Origin: Candidatus Daviesbacteria bacterium
GTDB taxonomy: Bacteria; Patescibacteriota; Microgenomatia; Daviesbacterales; UBA10151
Assembly (NCBI GenBank): GCA_028715175.1
Contig: JAQUSJ010000001.1
Span: 148,356-212,355, forward strand
Direction: 5' to 3'
Length of the DNA stretch: 64,000 nt
The first letter of the stretch is position 1. The number at the start of each line of letters is the position of its first letter. This document shows, piece after piece, positions 3,017-59,329 of the stretch. The position numbers were made by a program, and so were the translations under genes. The notes beneath the pieces are model-generated. The model searched no databases. It saw nothing but the letters and a program-made list of their open reading frames with translations, and was not told where the DNA came from.

Positions 3017-5116
3017 ATGGCAAGAAGAAGATCAATCTATAAATTACCCAAGTTTAGGTTAAAACAGAAAACTATAACTGCTGTTGGTACCCTAATAGCT
3101 TTCAGCTTGAGCGTTTTATCAATTGTGGCACTTTTTACCCATTCTCAAACACTAGTATTTTGGAGAGATTTTCTAAATGAGTATTTAGGTGTAGCAAAAA
3201 TTGCCTCCCCAATCATTTTTTTGCTTTCCGGTTTGGTTCTGACAAAAGCCAAATGGAAAATAGCACAGACTAATGTTCTTTTGGGATTTATTTTACTGGT
3301 TTTATCCAGTGTTTCATTTGTTGCGGCGCTAAATTCTGAAAAAGCGGGTTCGATCGGGCAAACTTTGTGGATACAGCTGTCTTCTTTTGTCACTCCGCTT
3401 GGGGCAGCCACTTTGTTTGTGTTAGTTTTCCTGATTGGTTTGGTTGTACTTTTTAATACTTCCCTGCAGCAAATTTTTGCCGTTTTTGTTTATATTTTTA
3501 ATATCTTGCAAAGACTGTTTAAAGCAATTTTTAACAATCAGCGGACATTTGAAGCAAAACATATTCCGATTAAAGTTTCCGGGGTTGACGAACGCCCCGT
3601 CACAAAACCGCTGGCAATGCAGCAAAAAGAGGCCGTTATTGCTGATGTATTGGTACAAAATGTGGCCGGGCAAAGTAAAATCTGGAAATATCCACCTTTA
3701 AATTTATTATCTGATAAAGTGGGATCGGCCGCTGAAAGAGGTAATGTTAAAGATAATGCTAATATTATCGAAAAAACGCTAGATTCATTTGGGATTCAGG
3801 CAAATGTGGCAGAAGTCAACGGCGGGCCGGCAGTAACACAATATGCGCTGCGGATTTCAGCAGGAACCAAAATTTCGAAGATTGCCAATTTACAGCATGA
3901 TATTGCGCTGTCTCTGGCTACGCCTACCGGTACTGTCAGAATTGAGGCGCCTATTCCCGGAAAATCCCTGGTTGGTATTGAGGTACCAAACCGCTCTCTT
4001 GAGATAGTCGGCTTGAAACAAATTTTAGCATCAGAAGAGATGCAGAAGCATAAATCAAGACTGGCTGTTGCACTGGGACGGGATACTTCTTCAAAGCCAA
4101 TGATTGTAGATATAGATAAGATGCCTCACGTTCTGATTGCCGGTACAACCGGTTCAGGTAAATCGGTGTTAATTAATGCAGTTATTGCTTCCTTGCTTTT
4201 CAGGAATTCACCGGACACCTTGAAGATGATTTTGATTGATCCAAAAAGGGTAGAACTGACAAACTACAATGGTATTCCTCATCTTCTAACACCGGTTATT
4301 ACGGAACCGGAAAAGATTTTATCTTCCTTGAAGTGGGCAATGGCCGAAATGGATAGACGCTATAAATTATTCCAGTCAGTCGGAGTGCGTAATATCACGG
4401 GTTATAATGAAATGTCCGGTTTTCAGGCCCTGCCGTATATTGTCATTATTGTTGACGAGTTGGCCGATCTTATGATGTTTGCGCCGGTTGAGATTGAGGA
4501 TGCAATTACCAGGATTGCCCAACTAGCTAGGGCAACAGGAATTCATCTGGTGGTGGCAACCCAGCGGCCTTCTGTTGACGTTATTACAGGTTTAATCAAA
4601 GCCAATATCCCCTGCCGGATTGCATTTAACGTATCTTCCATGATTGACTCCCGGGTTATTTTAGACGGACCCGGGGCGGAGAAATTGCTGGGACGGGGAG
4701 ATATGTTGTTTTTGCCTCCGGATGCTTCAAAACCGATTCGTATTCAAGGAGTGTTTGTTCAGGATAATGAGATCGAGAGTTTGATTAAATATCTTAAGAA
4801 TACCGGCATTGCGCCGGAATATACTACAGAGGTAACGGAGATGCCGCTGGGCAGGTGGGGCGGAAGAAATGGTAATGGAGGCGAAAAAGACCAGTTATTT
4901 GAGGAGGCAGTTAAAACTATTTGCCAATATGATCGGGCTTCGGCATCGCTGCTTCAAAGAAGGCTTAAGGTCGGTTATGCCAGAGCTGCCAGGATTTTAG
5001 ATGAGCTGGAGGCAGCAGGGATTGTTGGCCCGGGTGAAGGTTCAAAGCCCAGGGATGTGCTGGTCCGTAATGCTGAGGAATATTTTGCAGCTCAACAAAG
5101 TGCGAGCGGAAATTAA
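3017..5116 (+). CDS. ftsK: DNA translocase FtsK/SpoIIIE
   Basis: N-terminal TM helices, Walker A AGTTGSGKS, motor domain, C-terminal gamma winged helix (LLQRRLKVGYARAARILDELE). Confidence 0.9.
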   Translation: MARRRSIYKLPKFRLKQKTITAVGTLIAFSLSVLSIVALFTHSQTLVFWRDFLNEYLGVAKIASPIIFLLSGLVLTKAKWKIAQTNVLLGFILLVLSSVSFVAALNSEKAGSIGQTLWIQLSSFVTPLGAATLFVLVFLIGLVVLFNTSLQQIFAVFVYIFNILQRLFKAIFNNQRTFEAKHIPIKVSGVDERPVTKPLAMQQKEAVIADVLVQNVAGQSKIWKYPPLNLLSDKVGSAAERGNVKDNANIIEKTLDSFGIQANVAEVNGGPAVTQYALRISAGTKISKIANLQHDIALSLATPTGTVRIEAPIPGKSLVGIEVPNRSLEIVGLKQILASEEMQKHKSRLAVALGRDTSSKPMIVDIDKMPHVLIAGTTGSGKSVLINAVIASLLFRNSPDTLKMILIDPKRVELTNYNGIPHLLTPVITEPEKILSSLKWAMAEMDRRYKLFQSVGVRNITGYNEMSGFQALPYIVIIVDELADLMMFAPVEIEDAITRIAQLARATGIHLVVATQRPSVDVITGLIKANIPCRIAFNVSSMIDSRVILDGPGAEKLLGRGDMLFLPPDASKPIRIQGVFVQDNEIESLIKYLKNTGIAPEYTTEVTEMPLGRWGGRNGNGGEKDQLFEEAVKTICQYDRASASLLQRRLKVGYARAARILDELEAAGIVGPGEGSKPRDVLVRNAEEYFAAQQSASGN

Positions 5117-6624: not shown

Positions 6625-6915
6625 ATGGATTATTTACAAATTGCTTTAATTTTTTTGATTTTGCTACTGTCCATTTTCCTGGCCATTACCGGTATTCAGG
6701 TATTTTTTATTTTACGGGATCTGAAGAAAGCTCTGGATAAATTTAATGCAATTTTGCAAACAGGTGAGGACTTGGCGGAAGATATTGAAAGGCCGATGGC
6801 AGCTGCCAGCAGTCTGGCAACTAGCACAGGAGCAGCGGTTGTTTCAGGTGCAGCTAAGGTGCTGGAAAAAATCATCAAACCCAAACCAAAAAGATTTTAC
6901 AAAAAGGTTCTTTAA
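6625..6915 (+). CDS. Small membrane protein, DUF948-like (start moved to the internal ATG at 6625)
   Basis: TM helix ALIFLILLLSIFLAITGIQVFFIL followed by a coiled/Ala-rich tail. The upstream part of the listed ORF lacks coding character. Confidence 0.4.
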   Translation: MDYLQIALIFLILLLSIFLAITGIQVFFILRDLKKALDKFNAILQTGEDLAEDIERPMAAASSLATSTGAAVVSGAAKVLEKIIKPKPKRFYKKVL

Positions 6916-6919
6916 TATT

Positions 6920-7141
6920 TTATATAAATTTTTCCAGCTCTTTTCTGGTCATGCCAGCCTGCTTAAGGATGCTAGTGAATGTACCAATAGCTATTTCTTT
7001 ATGATTTGGAACAATGACAGTAAAATGCTTATTTCCTTGTCTTTTAAAGAGTTTAATATGGCTTCCTCTTTGACTGATAACGCAAAATCCTGCCCTTTGC
7101 AAGGCTGAAAGTATGATGCGGGCAGAGTATAGCTTAGGCAT
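6920..7141 (-). CDS. hicA: Type II toxin HicA (mRNA interferase, YcfA-like)
   Basis: 73 aa. The motif GSHIKLFKRQGNKHFTVIVPNHKEIAIGTFTSILKQAGMT matches HicA family topology. Confidence 0.8.
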   Translation of the reverse strand: MPKLYSARIILSALQRAGFCVISQRGSHIKLFKRQGNKHFTVIVPNHKEIAIGTFTSILKQAGMTRKELEKFI

Positions 7142-7349
7142 TAATTTGGATGGATAAATCCTGAAGTCTTGGTTTACTTACTGGTGTTAGTTCAATATTA
7201 GATTGGTCTTCAAAGTATAATTCAAGAGCCTCTTTTAAATTGTCCAAAGCTTCTGTGTGGGTTTTGCCTTGACTAGTTACTTCTATCTCTAGAGCTTTGG
7301 CAACATACCATTTATCTTCTTTCCATACTACAGAATGAATTCTTTTCAT
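7134..7349 (-). CDS. hicB: Antitoxin HicB (UPF0150)
   Basis: Start moved to the internal Met (MKRIHSVVWKEDKWYVAKALEIEVTSQGKTHTEALDNLKEALELYFED). Overlaps hicA by 8 nt. Confidence 0.7.
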   Translation of the reverse strand: MKRIHSVVWKEDKWYVAKALEIEVTSQGKTHTEALDNLKEALELYFEDQSNIELTPVSKPRLQDLSIQINA

Positions 7350-7421
7350 AGGTGTATTATACCATTTACTTGATAGAGGTTTATGCTTCGTTTGGAGGAT
7401 AATAAGTGTTAAAATACCAAC

Positions 7422-9305
7422 ATGACATCTCAAGAATTAAGAGCAAAATTTTTAAAATTTTTTGAAAAGAATGATCACAAAATTATTCCTTCTGCCTCTT
7501 TGGTACCCTCGGAAGAAGAACAGCTTGAGGGTAAGGAAAAAGTTTTATTTACCAGCGCCGGAATGCAACCCTTGATCCCCTATCTTATAGGACAAAAAGA
7601 GCCTCCTAGTAAAAGATTGGCCAATGTCCAAAAGTGCTTAAGGACAGACGATATTGAAAAAGTGGGAGATGCAGTTCATCATACTTTTTTTGAGATGTTA
7701 GGTAATTGGTCCATAGGTGATTATTGGAAAGAAGAAGCAATCAGATTGTCTTTTGAATTTCTAACACAAGAATTAGGAATACCTATAGAAAAACTTGCTA
7801 TTTCTGTTTTCGCTGGTGATGAGGATGCGCCAAAAGACGAGGAGTCGGCTCAAATATGGAAGAGTTTAGGGATTTCTGAGAAAAGAATATTTTACTTTGG
7901 TAAAAATCATAATTGGTGGCCTACAGGTGAAAAATCAGGTCTGTGCGGTCCTGATACAGAAATGTTTTATTGGATAGGTGGTGGTAAACCAGAAGGTAAA
8001 CCTAATGAAGATTCACGATGGGTGGAAATTTGGAATGATGTTTTCATGCAGTTTAATAGAAAAGAAGACGGTACTTTAGAAGATTTGCCTCAAAAAAATG
8101 TGGATACAGGAATGGGTTTAGAAAGAATACTGGCTGTATTAAATGGAAAAGAAAGCGACTATGAAACAGATTTATTTTTACCAATTATAAAGGTAGCGGA
8201 AGAACAACTATTAATAAAATTTAAATATGGAGAGGACAAACGAGTAGATCGCGCTTTTAAAATAATAGCTGATCATATAAAGGCAGTAGTTTTTTTGATT
8301 AATGAAGATATAGAACCTAGCAATAAAGATCGAGGATATATCTTAAGAAGATTGATAAGGCGAACGCTGACGCAAAACCATTTATGGGGTGATATAAATT
8401 CTTCTATATCGTTGTTAGTCAATAGTGTCATTGAGATTTATAAGAATAAATATAGTGATCTTGCCAGGAATACTCAACACATAAAAGATGTTATCAAACA
8501 AGAAGAAATAGGTGCGAATAAAGCAGTGAATGCTGCAATGACTGTGTGGAGAAAGTGGGTTGAAGAAGAACATAGAGGAGGTTTTGGAAGTCAGCCATTT
8601 GGAACGGCGACTTTTGGTTCTGGTGGGTACCTTCCTCCTGTATCGGCAGAAAAGATGTTTGATCTTTATCAATCATATGGATTACATCCTGAAATCATGG
8701 AAGAAATTACTCAAGGACAATTTGATAGGACAGGTTTCGACAAGCTATTTTTTGAACATCAAAAAAGATCTAGAGCTGGATTAATACAAAAATTCGCTGG
8801 GGGATTAGCAGGACATTCAGAGACGGAGATCAAATATCACACTGCCACTCATCTTTTGCATCAGGCCTTGCGGGATGTTTTGGGGCCGGAGGTTTTTCAA
8901 AAAGGTTCCAATATCACAGCTGAAAGGCTCAGATTTGATTTTTCCTATCCAGAGAAATTAACAGATGAACAAATTAAAAAAGTTGAAGATTTAGTTAACC
9001 AAAAAATAGCAGAAGATTTGGAAGTTACATCAGAAGTAATGAGTAAAGAAGAAGCATTAAAATCCGGAGCTTTGGGATTTTTCAATGAGAAATACGGGGA
9101 CAAGGTTAAAGTTTACACAATAGGTAGCCCTTCGACCTTTCGGCCTCGCTCAGGGCTGGCAAGCTCAAAATCTCCCTTTTCAAGGGAGATTTGCGGTGGG
9201 CCGCATGTTGAGCGTACCGGAGTAATAGGAAAAATTCAGATAATAAAAGAAGAAGCAGTATCTTCCGGCATACGTCGAATTAGGGCGGAAATTGTGTTAA
9301 GATAA
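7422..9305 (+). CDS. alaS: Alanine--tRNA ligase, short form (catalytic, tRNA-binding and editing domains; no C-Ala domain)
   Basis: N-terminal class II AlaRS motifs. Editing-domain metal motifs HTATHLLHQAL and CGGPHV. 627 aa. Confidence 0.9.
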   Translation: MTSQELRAKFLKFFEKNDHKIIPSASLVPSEEEQLEGKEKVLFTSAGMQPLIPYLIGQKEPPSKRLANVQKCLRTDDIEKVGDAVHHTFFEMLGNWSIGDYWKEEAIRLSFEFLTQELGIPIEKLAISVFAGDEDAPKDEESAQIWKSLGISEKRIFYFGKNHNWWPTGEKSGLCGPDTEMFYWIGGGKPEGKPNEDSRWVEIWNDVFMQFNRKEDGTLEDLPQKNVDTGMGLERILAVLNGKESDYETDLFLPIIKVAEEQLLIKFKYGEDKRVDRAFKIIADHIKAVVFLINEDIEPSNKDRGYILRRLIRRTLTQNHLWGDINSSISLLVNSVIEIYKNKYSDLARNTQHIKDVIKQEEIGANKAVNAAMTVWRKWVEEEHRGGFGSQPFGTATFGSGGYLPPVSAEKMFDLYQSYGLHPEIMEEITQGQFDRTGFDKLFFEHQKRSRAGLIQKFAGGLAGHSETEIKYHTATHLLHQALRDVLGPEVFQKGSNITAERLRFDFSYPEKLTDEQIKKVEDLVNQKIAEDLEVTSEVMSKEEALKSGALGFFNEKYGDKVKVYTIGSPSTFRPRSGLASSKSPFSREICGGPHVERTGVIGKIQIIKEEAVSSGIRRIRAEIVLR

Positions 9306-26790: not shown

Positions 26791-27975
26791 ATGGCTGAAC
26801 AGAAAAAATTTGATAGAAGCAAACCGCATGTAAATGTTGGAACCATGGGTCATGTTGACCATGGTAAAACAACTTTAACTGCTGCAATCACCAAAGTCTT
26901 GGCCGGCAAAGGTATGGCTGAAGAGCGCAGTGTTGATCAAATTGATAACGCTCCGGAAGAAAAAGCCCGTGGCATTACCATTAATATTTCTCACCAAGAG
27001 TATGAAACCGAAAAAAGGCATTATGCCCACATTGATATGCCAGGGCATGCAGATTACATCAAAAACATGATTACCGGCGCCGCCCAAACAGATGGCGCCA
27101 TTTTGGTAGTTTCTGCACCGGATGGCCCAATGCCTCAAACCAGAGAACATCTTCTATTGGCTCGCCAGGTAGGAGTTCCGGCAATTGTAGTTTATTTAAA
27201 TAAGGTAGATATGGTAGACGATCCTGAACTTTTGGATTTGGTAGAAGAAGAAGTTCGTGATCTTTTGAAGAAATATGAATATGATCCGCAGTCTCCTATA
27301 ATCCGCGGCAGCGCCAAAAAGGCTTTGGAAGGTGATGCTGAGGCAGTAAAATCTATTGAAGATTTAATGACTAAAGTTGACGAGTGGATTCCGACTCCTG
27401 TCAGGGATACGGATAAGCCGTTCCTGATGGCGGTTGAGGATGTTTTCTCAATTAAAGGCAGAGGTACGGTAGTAACCGGAAGAATTGAAAGAGGCAAGGT
27501 TAAAGTTAATGAAGAAATCGAAATCGTTGGCATCAAGCCCACAAAGAAAAGCGTTGTCACAGGAATTGAGATGTTCCATAAAATGCTGGATGAAGGTCAA
27601 GCGGGCGACAATGCCGGAATTCTGCTTCGAGGTATTGAAAAAGACGATGTTGAAAGAGGTCAAGTTTTGGCCAAACCAGGCTCAATTACCCCGCATTCCG
27701 AATTCCAGGCTGAAGTTTATATTTTGAGCAAAGAAGAAGGCGGAAGACACACTCCTTTTTTCAAAGGCTACAGACCGCAATTCTATATTAGAACTACAGA
27801 TGTGACCGGTGAAGTTACTTTACCGGAAGGAGTAGAAATGGCGATGCCAGGTGATACAGTCAATGTTACCGGTAAACTTATTACACCTGTTGCTATGGAA
27901 GAAGGTCTTCGTTTTGCTGTCAGAGAAGGCGGAAAAACGGTCGGAGCCGGGGTTATTACCAAAATAATCGCTTAA
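26791..27975 (+). CDS. tuf: Elongation factor Tu
   Basis: [39 protein letters not shown]; 394 aa. Confidence 0.95.
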
Positions 27976-27983
27976 GCTTATTT

Positions 27984-28039
27984 GTCATTCTGAACGTAGT
28001 GAAGAATCTAATTGGATTTTTCGTTTTACTCAGGATGAC
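27984..28039. repeat. Dual-hairpin palindromic repeat element (GTCATTC...hairpin...GAATC / GATT...hairpin...GATGAC), copy 1
   Basis: Two about 25-nt units in inverted orientation (gtcattctgaacgtagtgaagaatc / gatttttcgttttactcaggatgac). A near-identical element is at 50127-50182 and a related one at 31218-31288. Confidence 0.6.
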
Positions 28040-28088
28040 AATTTAGTATAATGCACATTGAAAGGGAAATCCCTAAAGGGATTATAAT

Positions 28089-28397
28089 ATGCCAAGAGGA
28101 CGAATCAGAGTAAAACTGAAGAGTTACGATCATCGGGTATTAGATAATACCTGTGAATCCCTTTTGGATACAGCCCTTAGAACCGGTGCCAAAATAGTCG
28201 GGCCAATCCTCCTTCCTACAAAAACTGAGCGCATTACGGTTTTAACTTCCCCCCATACAGACAAAGACTCAAGAGAAGCTTTTGAAATAAAAACCCACAA
28301 AAGAATGATTGATATTGTGGAACCTACCCAAAAAACCATTGATTCTCTCATGCATCTTGAAATCCCAGCCGGGGTTGATATTGAAGTAAAGATGTAG
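28089..28397 (+). CDS. rpsJ: 30S ribosomal protein S10
   Basis: IRVKLKSYDHRVLD...S10 family; 102 aa. Confidence 0.9.
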   Translation: MPRGRIRVKLKSYDHRVLDNTCESLLDTALRTGAKIVGPILLPTKTERITVLTSPHTDKDSREAFEIKTHKRMIDIVEPTQKTIDSLMHLEIPAGVDIEVKM

Positions 28398-28398
28398 C

Positions 28399-28992
28399 AT
28401 GTCTAAATTTAAGGTTTTAGGATTTATTAATTGCCTTTTAGCAATTTTGCCTATTGTCGTTCGGTATCCTCTTAATTTAGTTTTCTTATTTTCATTAGGA
28501 CTAAATATTTATTTAGGATATAAATTACTTTGGGAACACTATGATCTAACAAAATTTAAACAATATTCAACTCTGACTTTCTTAACTGTTTTTTGGCTCA
28601 TTTGGGGTTTGATCGGATATATTTTTGCGTCAGGGTTTGTTTACCCAATAATCTCTCTTGTGCCAATTACTGGAATTTTTATCTTTATTAGGAAACTTTC
28701 GGTTAAACTGGCTTTACTTGTTTCCTTTGCTACATTTTTAATTGTTGTCCAAACGATAGCTTGGAGATTTGAAGAAGATTATTGCTGGAAGAAAGGGTAT
28801 GAAATGGCTGTAGGTAAACTAGGAACGATGGTTGTTCCTGGCCAAGAAGCTAAAAATTTATTCGGCAGTGATATTGATATTTCTGCATCTGGTTCTGCTG
28901 AAGTTGGTACAGCCGCATATTACCATTTTAAGTGTCATCAGGATTTTGATTTGGGTAGAGTACTGAGAGAAAAATATATCCCAAAGAAGTAA
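28399..28992 (+). CDS. Hypothetical polytopic membrane protein inserted between rpsJ and rplC
   Basis: Starts 2 nt after the rpsJ stop (coupled); 4-5 predicted TM helices; no family recognised. Confidence 0.5.
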   Translation: MSKFKVLGFINCLLAILPIVVRYPLNLVFLFSLGLNIYLGYKLLWEHYDLTKFKQYSTLTFLTVFWLIWGLIGYIFASGFVYPIISLVPITGIFIFIRKLSVKLALLVSFATFLIVVQTIAWRFEEDYCWKKGYEMAVGKLGTMVVPGQEAKNLFGSDIDISASGSAEVGTAAYYHFKCHQDFDLGRVLREKYIPKK

Positions 28993-29162
28993 ATATAAAT
29001 TCACCTCTCTTGCATTTAGCCTCGAGTTTGTGTTAGAATTTCCTTACATGATTAGGTCAGGTTAAATAATTTAACCTAAACTACGTTCATGTAAACTGAA
29101 CGTAGTAAAATTTCAGTAGATCGCGCGTCCTGAAACGATACGGCGAATCTAGCGAGATACTG

Positions 29163-29197
29163 AGTGAGCTTCGCCTAGGCGAACTCACTCTTTTTAG
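29163..29197 (+). terminator. Attenuator/terminator-like hairpin plus T tract 10 nt upstream of the rplC start
   Basis: gagtgagcttcgcc-tag-ggcgaactcactc (13-bp stem with one bulge) followed by ttttt. No room for a promoter before rplC, so it is probably a regulated read-through attenuator. Confidence 0.45.
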
Positions 29198-29207
29198 TGC
29201 AAAAATT

Positions 29208-29999
29208 ATGATAAGTACACTTTTAGGTATAAAAAAGGAAATGACGAGTGTTTATGATTCCCGCGGAAGAAGGGTGGGAGCTACCGTTGTACAAATTTCA
29301 CCTAATTTGGTGACTCAAATAAAAACTACCGATGGTAAAGATGGTTACAGCGCAGTCCAGCTAGGTTATGGAACCAAAAAATCAGTCAAAAAACCTCAGC
29401 TTGGACACGGGAAAAAAGCTGGAATTGAAACTCCGATTAGATGGTTTAGGGAAGTTAAAATCAAGGAAGAAAATCCCTCGACTACGCTCGGGACTATAGA
29501 GCCTGGAACAGAAATTAAACTGGACCAGGTTTTTTCAATAGGAGATGCAGTAAAAGCGACAGGTATTTCTAAAGGTAAAGGTTTTCAAGGTGGAGTGAGG
29601 CGTCACGGCTTTCATGGCGGACCAAAGACTCACGGTCAATCAGATAGGTTGCGAGCTCCGGGCGCAATTGGTTCAGGTACTACCCCGGGAAGAGTTTATA
29701 AGGGCAAAAAGATGGCAGGTCATATGGGTAGTAGCGGAGCAAGTACCAAGAATTTAGAAGTCGTAGGGTTAAATAAAAATGATAATTTATTGATTATTAA
29801 AGGCGCAATTCCGGGGCCGGTGAATAATTTAGTTTTAATTACAAAATTAGGAAGAGTAAAAGGTTACACTCCGCCACCGGAAGAAAAACCATCGGAAGAA
29901 GAATTAAGCGAAGAGAAGCAAGAATCAAGCAAAGAAACAGAAGAGCCAAAGACTGAAGAAGCAAAGGTGGAACAAAAAGGAGAAGAAAATGCCAGTTAA
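29208..29999 (+). CDS. rplC: 50S ribosomal protein L3 with an acidic C-terminal extension
   Basis: L3 core (GKGFQGGVRRHGF...). About 45-aa Glu/Lys/Ser-rich tail. Confidence 0.9.
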   Translation: MISTLLGIKKEMTSVYDSRGRRVGATVVQISPNLVTQIKTTDGKDGYSAVQLGYGTKKSVKKPQLGHGKKAGIETPIRWFREVKIKEENPSTTLGTIEPGTEIKLDQVFSIGDAVKATGISKGKGFQGGVRRHGFHGGPKTHGQSDRLRAPGAIGSGTTPGRVYKGKKMAGHMGSSGASTKNLEVVGLNKNDNLLIIKGAIPGPVNNLVLITKLGRVKGYTPPPEEKPSEEELSEEKQESSKETEEPKTEEAKVEQKGEENAS

Positions 30000-30780
30000 A
30001 AAAGTGATAAGTAAGAAGAGAAAAGTAACAAGTGACAAGAAACAAGTGACAAGAAAAAAAGCTGGAAGTGCTTCTCTATCTGTTCCAGTTTATTCTCTAG
30101 CTGGTAGAGTTGCTGGAACTTTGTCATTACCAAAGGAAATTTTTGGGGTTAAAGTTAATAAAACATTGCTGTCACAAGCAGCTAGAGTTTATTTAACAAA
30201 CAAGAAGACCTTATTAGGTTCTACCAAGACCCGGGGTGAGATTGAGGGTTCAACTGCCAAGATTTATAGGCAAAAAGGCACCGGCAGGGCTAGACACGGC
30301 GCTATCCGCGCGCCGATATTTGTCGGGGGCGGTATTACTTTTGGTCCCAAGTCCCGCAAGGTACGGCTGGATTTACCAAAGAAGATGAAAAAAGCAGCTT
30401 TATTGTCTGCTCTTTCAGCTAAGGCGGCTGATAAGAATGTAATAGGGTTAGCTGGAGTTGAAAAAGCATCAGGTAAGACAAAAGAGTTATCTAAAGTTTT
30501 AAATAAAATTACTGGAGAAAATAAAGGCATGAAAAGTGTTTTGATTGTGACTGAGGGAAAAGCAGATAATATGATTAGAGCGGTCAGGAATATTCCAGGG
30601 GTTAGTATTTTGTCTACAAATTTGATTAATGCTTACGAAGTTTTAAGACACGACTTATTAATTTTGAACAAAGAAGCGGTCAATGTCATTCTGGGGAGTA
30701 AAACGACACCAGAATCTGGTAAGAAAGATTCTGGACGCGCTCTGCTTGCCAGAATGACAAAGAAAGGGAAGAAAAAATGA
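29989..30780 (+). CDS. rplD: 50S ribosomal protein L4 with basic N- and C-terminal extensions
   Basis: L4 core (KGTGRARHGAIRAPIFVGGG); 263 aa. Confidence 0.85.
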   Translation: MPVKKVISKKRKVTSDKKQVTRKKAGSASLSVPVYSLAGRVAGTLSLPKEIFGVKVNKTLLSQAARVYLTNKKTLLGSTKTRGEIEGSTAKIYRQKGTGRARHGAIRAPIFVGGGITFGPKSRKVRLDLPKKMKKAALLSALSAKAADKNVIGLAGVEKASGKTKELSKVLNKITGENKGMKSVLIVTEGKADNMIRAVRNIPGVSILSTNLINAYEVLRHDLLILNKEAVNVILGSKTTPESGKKDSGRALLARMTKKGKKK

Positions 30781-31205: not shown

Positions 31206-31217
31206 CGAATGCAGTGA

Positions 31218-31288
31218 GTCATCCCTGCGAAGGCAGGGATTCACTTAACAGCATCAATTAATTGGATTCCCGCATCCGCGGGAATGAC
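31218..31288. repeat. Dual-hairpin palindromic repeat element, copy 2 (gtcatccctgcgaaggcagggattc ... ggattcccgcatccgcgggaatgac)
   Basis: Same architecture and GTCAT/ATGAC termini as 27984-28039. The spacer carries the shared aattaattgg motif. It creates the spurious MDSRIRGNDK N-terminus on the rplB ORF. Confidence 0.6.
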
Positions 31289-31303
31289 AAGAATGAGAAG
31301 ATT

Positions 31304-32056
31304 ATGGAAACAATAAAAAGCACAAAAAGATTAAAGGTTTTGTTAAAGAAACACTCAGGCCGCTCTGGTGGAGTGTTGACTGTCCGTGGTCAAGGCGGAA
31401 GACATAAGAGGTATTACAGGGGGATTGATTTTAGAAGGGATAAATTTGGAGTTTCGGGTGAAGTGATGGATATTGAATATGATCCGAATAGAAATGTAAA
31501 AATTGCCTTAATCAAATATACGGATGGAGAATACAGGTACATTTTGGCCCCAAAAGGGTTATCTGCGGGTGACAAAGTGATAGCCGGTGACAAAAGTGAA
31601 ATAAAAATTGGTAATGCGATGAAGTTACAAAATATAACGATCGGGACACTGATACATAATGTTGAACTTACTCCTGGTAAAGGCGGACAATTAGGTCGGA
31701 GTGCTGGAATGGCGTTACAACTTCTTGCCAAAGAAGGCGGTTTCGCTAATTTGAAGATGCCCTCAGGTGAGGTTAGGATGATCTCTCTGCAATCAATGGC
31801 TACGATTGGCACATTAGGCAACGAGGAAGTGAGACAGCGGGTATTGGGCAAAGCCGGCAGATCCCGCCATATGGGTATCAAACCAACTGTTCGCGGTGTG
31901 GCTCAAGATCCTGATTCTCACCCGCACGGCGGGGGAGAAGGAAGATCAGGAATTGGGCGAAAAAGCCCGATGACAAAATATGGCAAGATTGCTGTCGGTA
32001 AAACCAGAAATAGAAGAAAGCAAAGCAATAGATATATTTTGAAAAGGAGAAAATAA
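31304..32056 (+). CDS. rplB: 50S ribosomal protein L2
   Basis: Start moved to [12 protein letters not shown]2 motifs (GRNxxGxIT-like, HPHGGGEG). Confidence 0.9.
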
Positions 32057-46283: not shown

Positions 46284-46308
46284 ATAGTTTATGGTTTACT
46301 AGTAAATA

Positions 46309-46448
46309 CATCAAGAGTCTACGTTCATGTAAGCTGAACGTGGCGGCAACCGGAAAGTAATCGGTGCCAATCCCGATGTAATATCGGGAGATGTGGTCTT
46401 AAGTTTTAGGACAAACTTTATCTAGACCTCTCTTGATGAGAGGTTTTT
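46309..46448 (+). promoter_or_regulatory. Candidate SAM-I-like riboswitch with terminator expression platform in the metK leader (atypical: no P2 arm)
   Basis: P1 CAUCAAGAG...AGAUG; GGCAACC at 46345-46351; GGUGCCAAU at 46363-46371; P4 hairpin cccgauguaauaucggg. Terminator ccucucuugaugagagg plus UUUUU ends 2 nt before the metK ATG and is complementary to the P1 5' strand. Confidence 0.4.
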
Positions 46449-46450
46449 AA

Positions 46451-47566
46451 ATGGTAAAAAATAATGGGGTAACAACTTTTACATCTGAGTCGGTTTGCGC
46501 CGGTCATCCGGATAAAATTTGCGACCAAATCTCCGATGCAATTTTGGATGCTGTTTTAACTCAGGATAGATTCGGTCATGTAGCTTGCGAAACACTAGTC
46601 GGATTTAACAGAGTAGTAATTTCCGGCGAAATTACAGCTAACGCTAAAGTAAATTATGAAAGTATTGCCAGAGAACAAATCAAGAGACTTGGTTATAAAG
46701 ATCCTAAATTGAATTTTTCCGATAAATCGCATATAGAAAACTATCTGCATGAACAATCGCAAGAAATTGCAATAGGGGTTGATGGTAAGGGCGCAGGCGA
46801 TCAAGGTATGATGTTCGGATTTGCTTGTAATGAAACTCCACAGCTAATGCCTCTTCCTATAACTCTTGCTCATGGTTTAACGAGACGAATGGATTATGTC
46901 AGAGAAGAAGGCTTAGTTGACTACCTTAGGCCGGATGGCAAAAGTCAGGTAACTGTGGAATATAGGAATGGCAGACCATTGAAAGTTTTGCAAGTAATTA
47001 TTGCCGTGCCACATAAAGAATCAGTTCTTTTAAGTCAAGTTAAAAAAGATATTTATAATGCAGTTGTCGTACCTGTCTTGGACCAGTTTGGCTTTAAATT
47101 AAATATCAAAGATTTGATTGTCAACGGAACAGGTGTCTGGCATAATGGTGGACCAGCTGCTGATTGTGGAGTAACCGGAAGGAAAATAGTTGTTGATGGA
47201 TACGGAGGTTATGCCAGAGTTGGAGGTGGAGCTTTTTCCGGAAAGGACCCGACAAAAGTTGATAGGTCAGGAGCATATGCTGCCAGGTTTTTGGCCAAAA
47301 ATATAGTTGCCAATAAATTGGCTGATAAAGCGGAGGTAAGACTAGCATATTTTATTGGAGCAAAAAAACCTTCTATGCAGGATGTAGAAACTTTTGGTAC
47401 TAACAAAAAGTCTCACAAGGTAATACTTTCTTTTATGAATAGTATTTTAGATACATCAGTTTCCGGAATCTTGAAAGCTCTGGATTTACAAAGACCAATT
47501 TATCTGCCAACAGCAGCTTATGGTCACTTCGGCAGGGAAGAGTTCCCCTGGGAAAAAGTTGTTTAG
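46451..47566 (+). CDS. metK: S-adenosylmethionine synthetase
   Basis: TSESVCAGHPDKICDQISDAILDA, GAGDQGMMFGFA, GGAFSGKDPTKVDRSGAYAARF. Confidence 0.9.
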   Translation: MVKNNGVTTFTSESVCAGHPDKICDQISDAILDAVLTQDRFGHVACETLVGFNRVVISGEITANAKVNYESIAREQIKRLGYKDPKLNFSDKSHIENYLHEQSQEIAIGVDGKGAGDQGMMFGFACNETPQLMPLPITLAHGLTRRMDYVREEGLVDYLRPDGKSQVTVEYRNGRPLKVLQVIIAVPHKESVLLSQVKKDIYNAVVVPVLDQFGFKLNIKDLIVNGTGVWHNGGPAADCGVTGRKIVVDGYGGYARVGGGAFSGKDPTKVDRSGAYAARFLAKNIVANKLADKAEVRLAYFIGAKKPSMQDVETFGTNKKSHKVILSFMNSILDTSVSGILKALDLQRPIYLPTAAYGHFGREEFPWEKVV

Positions 47567-48844: not shown

Positions 48845-48915
48845 ATAGATATTGTCGGGGAGGGGAGAATCGAACTCCCGATGCCGCACCCCCAGCGCGG
48901 CGTGTTGCCACTATA
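48845..48915 (-). tRNA. tRNA-Pro (anticodon GGG), no encoded CCA
   Basis: Reverse complement folds as a cloverleaf. Acceptor CGGGGAG/CUCCCCG, anticodon stem CCGCG/UGCGG with loop CUGGGGG (U33, GGG, G37), T arm GGGAG-UUCGAUU-CUCCC, discriminator A. Confidence 0.75.
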
Positions 48916-49059
48916 CTACTCCCCGCCTTCGCCAAGGCTTCGGCGGGCAAGCCCGTTTTTTGCCTTAGACTTATGGTATTTTATCAGGTTAAAGGCCAAT
49001 ACTCTATATAATCATTTTGGGGGATTGATATTTGGGAAATATTTGGTAATCTTGAACAT

Positions 49060-59029: not shown

Positions 59030-59286
59030 ACGCCTAGGAAGAAGGATGATCGGTCGCCTTAGGCGACAGGAAAGTCCAGACAGCATAAAGCAGGGTGGTC
59101 CGATGTAAATCGGACACGGGTAACCGCTAGTTAGAGCAACAGTGACGAACCGAGGTCATGCTCGGGTGAAACGTGGCAATCCTCCCCGCTGCAATCCTAG
59201 AACCGACAGAGTTGCTTGCTCAATTGTTGAAATCAGGAGCATTAGATAAATGATCGTCTAAAAACAGAATCTGGCTTACTAGCTTC
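59030..59286 (+). ncRNA. rnpB: RNase P RNA (compact bacterial type)
   Basis: P1 gccuaggaag / cuuccuaggc (59032-59041 / 59273-59282). P4 strands GGAAAGUCCAGAC and ACAGAAUCUGGCUUA match the universal P4 consensus. AGCAGGGUGG and extended -10 tgTATAAT lie just upstream. Confidence 0.7.
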
Positions 59287-59329
59287 CTAGGCATTTTTCT
59301 TCTATTTTTCTCATTGTATACTTATATAA

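Follow-up and report, generated by a model that had tools for sequence, protein, structure and literature searches.

A conserved rplC leader RNA with an intrinsic-terminator-like hairpin in Candidatus Daviesbacteria: a candidate ribosomal-protein attenuator

Introduction

In the leader of the Escherichia coli S10 operon, excess ribosomal protein L4 together with NusA causes transcription termination at a hairpin followed by a U-run, and the hairpin located immediately upstream of this terminator is required (PMC3616713; PMC10931766 section 3.3). L4 also represses translation of its operon, and the S10-leader family is confined to some Gammaproteobacteria (PMC3616713, PMC10931766). Here we describe a leader RNA that precedes rplC, the gene for ribosomal protein L3, in a 64,000-nucleotide stretch (hereafter ‘the window’) of a Candidatus Daviesbacteria genome, a member of the Microgenomates within the Candidate Phyla Radiation (CPR). 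Judging by its sequence characteristics, we rate this RNA as a candidate ribosomal-protein leader with an intrinsic-terminator-like hairpin. The comparisons given below support the E. coli L4/S10 leader as the right functional analogy, and an attenuator appears to be the reading that fits best.

In the direction of transcription, the unit consists of a promoter-like element, a short open reading frame (mini-ORF) with hairpin 1, an A/U-rich linker, a conserved core, a terminator-like hairpin and a U-tract, after which rplC begins. Like the E. coli S10 leader, it forms the 5′ leader of an operon encoding L3, L4, L23 and L2, and its layout resembles the E. coli succession of variable 5′ hairpins, a required hairpin and then a hairpin plus U-run near the first start codon. 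Neither leader has an obvious antiterminator, and factor-dependent termination is thereby implied. However, the E. coli leader is located before rpsJ, whereas the Daviesbacteria leader is located after rpsJ and abuts rplC in every locus, and only the latter carries a conserved 5′ mini-ORF.

A candidate L4 leader has been described directly upstream of rplC, rplD, rplW and rplB in Archaeoglobi (Eckert and Weinberg 2020, PMC7247131). There, as here, a conserved structured leader stands directly before rplC, and rplC rather than rpsJ heads the operon. Unlike this archaeal RNA, which is not described as terminator-based, the Daviesbacteria leader ends in an intrinsic-terminator-like hairpin; the two motifs are unrelated, and the Daviesbacteria leader has no Rfam match at E values up to 10. 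The infC-rpmI-rplT leader of Bacillus subtilis mediates L20-dependent transcription attenuation (PMC1865079) and resembles what we propose here in that a ribosomal protein controls its own operon via an intrinsic terminator in the leader, but it uses antiterminator and terminator alternatives and concerns another operon and another protein. Leader-peptide attenuators likewise have an ORF of very few codons right at the 5′ end and a terminator downstream; in contrast to them, the Daviesbacteria leader exhibits no evident regulatory codons, no antiterminator overlapping the ORF and no fixed distance from the ORF to the remainder of the leader.

Results

A conserved unit attached to rplC

In the window, rpsJ (28089-28397, + strand; ribosomal protein S10, Pfam Ribosomal_S10, E 2.9e-35) is followed by a gene for a 197-aa membrane protein of an uncharacterised family (28399-28992, + strand), by a non-coding spacer of 215 nt that holds the promoter-like element and the leader (28993-29207), and by rplC (29208-29999, + strand; Pfam Ribosomal_L3). 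The latter heads the putatively regulated operon, which continues with rplD, rplW and rplB (gene content as called in L002; relatives of the window are labelled L002, L003 and so on). An earlier note on this DNA, prepared from the sequence alone, had delimited the 215-nt leader correctly, and the RNA folding that it proposed as a check came out in its favour: the region 28993-29230 is predicted to be more stable than every one of its shuffles (z -4.6), with z -5.3 when the RNA is taken from its predicted transcription start.

The leader unit is present in all four of the relatives that were sampled through proteins rather than through the motif itself, of which L002 and L003 were found via the membrane protein and L006 and L007 via L3. 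A pattern derived from the core, with 22 fixed bases, was used to retrieve further metagenome loci and returned 54. In every locus with sufficient contig, an L3 start (MxxTLLGxKKxMT) follows the leader on the same strand. The upstream neighbours differ. In L006 the leader unit follows rpsJ with no gene in between, in L007 a Peptidase_M10-like gene separates the two, and in L003 a minus-strand ORF separates the membrane gene from the promoter and leader; in the last two loci the leader nevertheless stays with rplC. Covariance model R1, which was built from 47 leader sequences, has a single match in the 64-kb window (84.6 bits). We therefore regard the spacer, as its sequence indicates, as the probable promoter and 5′ leader of an operon starting at rplC, and as a conserved unit belonging to that gene. 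It displays what is expected of a ribosomal-protein leader, namely a conserved structured RNA on the same strand in the 5′ untranslated region (UTR) of a ribosomal-protein operon.

The distance from the T-run to the rplC ATG is at most 26 nt in 38 of 52 measurable loci, and the other 14 loci have 35-109 nt inserted between the U-tract and the ATG while retaining the hairpin. Such inserts of 35-109 nt were noted in L093, L094, L100, L120, L123, L127, L129, L136 and L137. One recurring insert of about 45 nt holds GAACCCTGC..GCAGGAACC, and another of about 100 nt holds a TATAAT-like box.

The motif appears to be restricted to this lineage, given that R1 found no example in more distant CPR relatives (L008, L011 and L075) or in 26 other rplC loci. 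The core is absent from L008 and L011, whose L3 proteins are about 50% identical, and an unrelated hairpin with T7-8 is located shortly before rplC in both (3900-4000 and 3860-4000, respectively). L011 also has a promoter-like arrangement (TTGCGT, 17 nt, TGATATAAT) and an inserted 119-aa ORF between rpsJ and rplC. Given these hairpins with T7-8 and the promoter-like arrangement of L011, the promoter/terminator architecture of the leader may be older than this particular core. The leader has no match in Rfam 15, either in a gathering-threshold scan of the whole window or in a permissive cmscan of 27950-29300 at E up to 10, and no counterpart was found in Rfam 15 or in the literature searched.

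The terminator-like hairpin

The 3′ part of the leader is formed by a hairpin (29162-29190) and a U-tract (29191-29195) that together constitute the terminator-like hairpin plus U5 tract (29162-29195, + strand). The hairpin reads GAGUGAG, a bulged C, UUCGC, the loop CUAG, GCGAA and CUCACUC, and thus has a stem of 7 bp, one bulged C and 5 bp (12 bp in all; dG -17.1 kcal/mol). The TTTTT run at 29191-29195 ends 12 nt before the rplC ATG. The earlier note had given a 13-bp stem and a run ending 10 nt before the ATG; these dimensions need correction to 12 bp and 12 nt, and the hairpin with its U-run is real, compensatory changes accompanying its conservation throughout the clade.

The lower stem is paired in 100% of the sequences, and four of its seven pairs show double changes, while the upper stem varies in sequence and length with pairing kept. 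In overall description, the stem base GAGUGAG/CUCACUC does not vary and the top varies freely, the upper stem being exchanged for a CCTGAGCGAAGTCGAAGG-type palindrome in several loci. Predicted stabilities over 47 leaders range from -11 to -23 kcal/mol (average -16), a T-run of 5-7 directly follows the hairpin in all 46 measurable leaders, and in full leaders the pairs of the stem have an average probability of 0.86. A stable GC-rich stem-loop with an immediate U-tract is the sequence signature expected of an intrinsic terminator. A search for antiterminators returned no competing fold, the terminator being predicted in nearly all full leaders; nor was the pairing typical of trp-type attenuators, in which an antiterminator competes with the terminator, found in full leaders. 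We considered whether the hairpin terminates the rpsJ unit ahead of a separate rplC promoter, and rejected this because the promoter precedes the terminator.

A UG dinucleotide is conserved 2 nt past the U-tract (UUUUU-N-[A/G/U]UG in about 45 of 48 leaders; 29191-29199 in the window). In the window, a GTG at 29197 opens the frame GTG CAA AAA TTA TGA, the stop of which overlaps the rplC ATG. An upstream ORF or a true rplC start at this NTG was rejected as a consistent feature, as its frame relative to rplC varies between relatives.

The conserved core

The core (29111-29162, + strand) has the form UUUCAGUAGAUCGYGCGUC, a loop, and GAUACGRCGAWU..GCGAGAUACUG. It is nearly invariant, and its closing helix P1 (CAGU/ACUG) never varies. 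Since the retrieval pattern fixed 22 core bases, the free tests of conservation are the N positions of the pattern, P1, the 3′ linker and the terminator. P1 directly abuts the terminator hairpin, and so the trait that we tested for an E. coli-type attenuator is present: the core helix system adjoins, with nothing in between, a conserved hairpin and a U-run of at least five.

Two core folds were evaluated. The first is a long hairpin (AUCGY-G-CGU...ACG-RCGAU) and has the better covariation support; at its discriminating pair, Y115-R151, we counted CG 28 times, UA 15 times and UG 6 times, with no mismatches. The second, obtained with RNAalifold, comprises UCGY/RCG.A and CGUC/GRCG; its discriminating pair is CG 27 times, UG 13 times and UA 6 times, with three mismatches, but it is favoured by fold energy (mean -13.4 versus -9.2 kcal/mol for the first fold). 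The two folds may be alternative conformers.

Local alignments of the core to E. coli 23S and 16S rRNA scored within the range of shuffles, and a search of the 954 kb of collected sequence for rRNA genes found none. In one core fold, the CGUC/GRCG stem (with a U.G or U-A pair) lies beside GAUAC, and E. coli 23S rRNA has GCGUC(301-305)...GGCGC(312-316) GCGAUAC(317-323), a post-hoc likeness in which the arrangement is permuted and the overall similarity is not significant. We take E. coli 23S 301-323 to be the L4 region. It is conceivable that CUCUUUUUA is boxA-like, of the type involved in NusB/S10 antitermination.

Promoter-like element, mini-ORF and hairpin 1

A promoter-like element of the rplC operon is located at the 5′ end of the spacer (29010-29039, + strand). 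It consists of a -35 box TTGCAT (29010-29015), an 18-nt spacer and the extended -10 TGTTAGAAT (29031-29039; TG-T-TAGAAT). The consensus, kept in 49 distinct sequences from relatives, is cTTGCatTt, 18 nt, TGTTAaAAT, its distance from the core being constant, and the element accompanies rplC when the upstream gene changes. A -35 box and an extended -10 at 17 ± 1 nt spacing, conserved in relatives, correspond to a sigma-70-type promoter, with transcription predicted to start near 29046, about 7 nt past the -10. Because of this conserved element, we infer that rplC is served by a promoter of its own, located ahead of the leader, and does not rely solely on read-through from rpsJ.

The earlier note had argued that the hairpin leaves no room for a promoter. 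This is true of the interval between hairpin and ATG in most relatives (at most 26 nt in 38 of 52), but it overlooks the conserved promoter-like element at the 5′ end of the spacer. A promoter mapped inside the leader had been named there as an observation that would speak against the proposal, and the element that we found comes near to this, except that it sits before the terminator and not after it.

About 2 nt from the predicted transcription start begins a mini-ORF, ATG ATT AGG TCA GGT TAA (MIRSG-stop; 29048-29065, + strand), which is a candidate near-leaderless leader peptide. An ATG is located 7-13 nt past the -10 in 41 of 48 leaders, compared with a mean of 6.3 and a maximum of 13 in shuffles (n=1000), and it opens an ORF of 4-7 codons. 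Most of these ORFs end in Ser-Gly-stop, with Ser encoded by TCA or AGT, Gly by GGT, GGA or GGG, and TAA, TGA or TAG as the stop, while some leader subtypes encode unrelated mini-peptides (MNSS, MLIT, MRMV...). The mini-ORF overlaps hairpin 1 (GGTTAAA/TTTAACC; 29060-29076, + strand), a weak and sequence-variable 5′ hairpin, and constraints on coding and on pairing are therefore inseparable. Almost every relative has a predicted hairpin at the corresponding position, with at least four different stem sequences overall.

Hairpin 2 is a strain-specific insertion

The earlier note had counted three hairpins in the leader, and all three are present in the window. However, the second of these is not part of the conserved element. 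Hairpin 2 is the palindrome CTACGTTCATGTAAACTGAACGTAG (29081-29105) within a strain-specific insertion (29077-29109, + strand), in which the 25-nt palindrome is flanked by TAAA at 29077-29080 and TAAA at 29106-29109. Relative to L002, the net insertion is exactly 29 nt, corresponding to the palindrome plus one copy of the flanking TAAA, and it is absent from L002, the closest relative, and from all other aligned leaders. The remainder of the leader tolerates this insertion.

A second copy of the palindrome, with two mismatches, is located at 46319-46343, where it forms the P2 stem of a SAM-I-like riboswitch candidate (46305-46447; RF00162, 29.3 bits, which is below the gathering score of 44.4, E 6.5e-5). 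This candidate carries the motifs AUCAAGAG, GGCAACC, GGUGCCAAU and AGAU, followed by a terminator-like hairpin and U-run, and is located directly upstream of metK (46451-47566).

The rpsJ-rplC junction and its cargo

Among 76 diverse bacteria examined through an L3 search, rpsJ lies 1-682 nt upstream of rplC, with a gap below 240 nt in all but five. The corresponding gap in Daviesbacteria-like loci measures between 195 nt and 5.2 kb, and the genes within it are unrelated and lie on either strand. The cargo includes GIY-YIG nucleases, DUF2283 and DUF3276 proteins, a Metallophos phosphoesterase, a signal peptidase (Peptidase_S26), a Peptidase_M10-like protein, Sigma70_r4-like proteins, small membrane proteins and large secreted proteins. 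That the junction takes up unrelated genes would be explained by its being an operon boundary.

The cargo gene of the window begins 1 nt past the rpsJ stop (not 2 nt, as first reported), and the sequence of its 197-aa product matches that of NCBI protein PHE48_00980 exactly. The invariant motifs FEEDYCWKKG and GTAAYYHFKC recur in seven homologs (47-100% identity), and for this reason the ORF can be taken as a real gene, as the earlier note had assumed. Two Cys residues of the roughly 70-aa C-terminal domain are among the invariant positions. Structure prediction gives five transmembrane helices together with a small alpha/beta domain at the C-terminus (pLDDT 74), and neither a Pfam or NCBIfam family nor a solved fold was matched. 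The suggested search for this family elsewhere, conducted as a profile search of 1.8 billion representatives, yielded only 76 related cluster representatives; the homologs of L004 and L005 are located outside the junction in other contexts, one of them adjoining a DUF2283 gene.

Synteny in relatives, another check that had been proposed, separates the two parts of the insertion. The leader is conserved and occurs without the membrane gene in most relatives, whereas only three loci, namely the window, L002 (86% identical) and L003 (54%), have the membrane gene between rpsJ and rplC. Given this limited occurrence, we consider this gene to be lineage-specific accessory cargo that is separate from the leader device. 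In L133, whose S10 is 98% identical, the rpsJ stop and the -35 box are just 14 nt apart, and the membrane gene of the window is inserted exactly between these two points, which suggests a recent insertion. The gene is presumably co-transcribed with rpsJ. Since no terminator separates it from the leader, transcripts that start at the promoter-like site of rpsJ probably also run into the leader.

Other features of the locus

Upstream of rpsJ is tuf (26791-27975), and a sequence scan detected a promoter-like site of rpsJ (TTTACT, 16 nt, TATAAT; 28025-28052, + strand). Directly 3′ of this site is a conserved segment of the rpsJ 5′ UTR, GCACATTGAAAGGGAAAT (28053-28088). Among 36 relatives, a GCACATTGAAAGGG-type segment precedes rpsJ in most, and TATAAT followed by GCAC within 6 nt is found upstream of rpsJ in 13. 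The GCACATTGAAAGGGAAAT segment itself precedes rpsJ in most of the 36, with or without a TATAAT box in front. The tuf stop is located only about 20 nt upstream in some loci, and rpsJ may consequently be co-transcribed with tuf there.

A long inverted repeat, ttgtcattctgaacgtagtgaagaatc...ttactcaggatgacaa, is found within the tuf-rpsJ spacer (27981-28040). In many relatives, palindromes of a similar kind flank the promoter of rplC, and in several they take the place of the top of the terminator hairpin (e.g. L002 and L107, with CCTGAGCGAAGTCGAAGG). They may contribute to the rpsJ-rplC junction being an insertion site.

Downstream of the leader, rplC and rplD (29989-30780) overlap by 11 nt; a Shine-Dalgarno sequence is present before rplD and absent before rplC. 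The C-terminal tail of L3 (about 45 aa) is acidic and rich in Lys, and L4 is extended at its N-terminus by about 35 aa that are likewise Lys-rich (29880-30090). The rplW-rplB spacer (31206-31303) has two GC-rich palindromes, gtcatccctgcgaaggcagggattcac and ggattcccgcatccgcgggaatgac, both of which are spanned by the mechanically called rplB ORF (TTG at 31262); the true rplB start is probably the ATG at 31304 (METIKS...). In L002 (GCA_028712705.1), an intact 263-aa rplC ORF at 6793-7584, 90% identical to L3 of the window, is uncalled in the gene table. Elsewhere in the window, a class A RNase P RNA is located at 59034-59294 (111 bits; 261 nt matched versus the 367-position model) and one tRNA at 48855-48925 on the minus strand.

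Discussion

A model for the leader and its difficulties

The earlier note had proposed that the leader behaves like the L4-controlled attenuator of the E. coli S10 operon, relocated to rplC. The functional part of this comparison holds up, but we find neither homology, in sequence or structure, to the E. coli helices HD and HE nor relocation. With filters off, R1 gave only chance-level matches in the region upstream of E. coli rpsJ (at most 7.9 bits), none of them in the leader, and likewise only chance-level matches in the E. coli S10 operon and an rRNA operon. A relocated E. coli attenuator was thus rejected, given that R1 finds nothing in the E. coli S10 leader and that the Daviesbacteria leader always travels with rplC. 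None of the models in Rfam 15 recognises the E. coli S10 leader, and so a negative Rfam result is uninformative regarding membership of that family.

On balance, we consider it rather likely that this lineage-specific leader attenuates transcription of the rplC operon, most probably via a ribosomal protein, with L4 suggested by precedent. The order of promoter, structured RNA, terminator and gene, with no promoter after the terminator and no antiterminator, is the design of a factor-dependent attenuator; in most loci (38 of 52, with T-run to ATG distances of at most 26 nt), there is no room for another promoter. That no competing antiterminator fold is predicted matches factor-dependent attenuation of the E. 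coli type. The sequences themselves show the anatomy of the unit, its conservation and covariation, its fixed association with rplC and the variable cargo; promoter activity, termination and the identity of the effector are what we infer from these arrangements.

Transcription would begin about 7 nt past the extended -10, and read-through from rpsJ and the membrane gene would also enter the leader. The RNA would first make the weak 5′ hairpin that overlaps the 5-codon mini-ORF, and then the core helix system, composed of P1 and an inner hairpin that has either conserved bulges or the conserved loop GAUAC. The stem-loop and its U-run of at least five, right after P1 and 12 nt before the rplC start, would make polymerase pause or terminate intrinsically. 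The fraction of polymerases that reach rplC could then be set by a factor recognising the core together with the invariant terminator base. This factor would most likely be a ribosomal protein encoded downstream, present in excess of free rRNA, with L4 as the candidate by precedent, possibly acting with NusA. Since the hairpin adjoins a start codon that lacks a Shine-Dalgarno sequence, it is conceivable that the same binding could also block initiation of rplC translation.

Several points weigh against this model. The terminator is predicted to be constitutive before essential, highly expressed genes, and the model must for that reason assume that termination is weak or factor-dependent. The invariance of the core is in large part circular, as a pattern fixing 22 of its bases served to retrieve the 54 loci. 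Both core folds fit the alignment, with covariation favouring one and energy the other, and mimicry of rRNA is unsupported, the similarity to E. coli 23S not being significant. Neither the conserved mini-ORF nor the UG past the U-tract has a role in a simple ribosomal-protein model. Finally, it is from sequence that we deduce the use of the promoter, the 3′ ends at the U-tract and the read-through.

Alternative functions

An unlikely alternative, though one that merits some weight, is that the element acts mainly on translation, with a protein bound to the core and the hairpin base, or the hairpin itself, blocking the rplC start and the U-run serving as a landing site for the ribosome or S1. 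In most loci, 1-26 nt lie between the end of the hairpin and the start codon, in L121 and L118 the U-tract reaches the start codon region, rplC lacks the Shine-Dalgarno sequence that rplD has, and L4 also represses translation of the operon in E. coli (PMC3616713). However, a strictly conserved GC-rich stem with at least five U residues is a signature of intrinsic termination, and the 14 loci with 35-109 nt between the U-tract and the ATG keep the hairpin, which argues that it need not touch the start site. We regard as quite doubtful a translation-sensing attenuator in which ribosome loading or release at the mini-ORF (M-x-x-x-S-G-stop) alters folding of the leader; rplC read-through would then report free-ribosome capacity rather than the level of one protein, an outcome to which we assign equally little weight. 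Leaderless short-ORF attenuators occur in mycobacteria. The position of the ATG, 7-13 nt past the -10 in 41 of 48 leaders versus about 6 expected, and the retention of Ser-Gly-stop with different Ser codons and all three stops speak for such a sensor. Nevertheless, RNA pairing alone can explain much of this pattern given the overlap with hairpin 1, no alternative pairing was found between the ORF region and the terminator, the window tolerates a 29-nt insertion between ORF and core, and some subtypes encode the unrelated peptides listed above. Were the leader indeed a ribosome-capacity sensor, which we think poorly probable, translation of the mini-ORF, the core and the terminator base would jointly decide passage into the rplC operon, and this would be a new coupling of ribosomal-protein synthesis to ribosome availability in a CPR lineage.

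The promoter-to-terminator unit, with its own promoter-like element, its terminator and strong conservation in between, might instead be an independent gene for a small RNA (about 150 nt) that happens to adjoin rplC. This is very unlikely, as the unit is on the same strand and immediately before rplC wherever this is visible, including where upstream neighbours differ, and it occurs once per locus with no copy elsewhere in the 64 kb. Moreover, rplC has no other promoter in most loci, and its transcription must therefore traverse the element. The invariant core of about 35 nt, with its closing helix P1 stacked directly on the terminator, also brings to mind a riboswitch-like element that senses a small molecule or nucleotide and thereby sets termination ahead of the ribosomal-protein genes. 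To this we give almost no credence: there is no expression platform with mutually exclusive pairings, the sole context is a ribosomal-protein operon, as is typical of protein-binding leaders, and no Rfam family was matched at E up to 10.

Implications

To our knowledge, almost nothing is known about gene regulation in CPR bacteria, and nothing about how they balance their ribosomal proteins. The leader described herein is a well-populated candidate regulatory RNA, with about 50 distinct examples and a clear architecture, and it is small enough for direct in vitro work. The operon boundary at which it is located is a landing site for accessory genes within the most conserved gene cluster of bacteria, and the cargo at the rpsJ-rplC junction matters wherever the S10 cluster is used for synteny or phylogeny. 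Archaea have the S10 gene together with elongation-factor genes, and rplC is the first gene of the operon; the S10 cluster would be split at rplC in the Daviesbacteria lineage as well. If the leader functions as proposed, then attenuation before the L3-L4 genes would have arisen in this lineage independently of the E. coli S10 leader.

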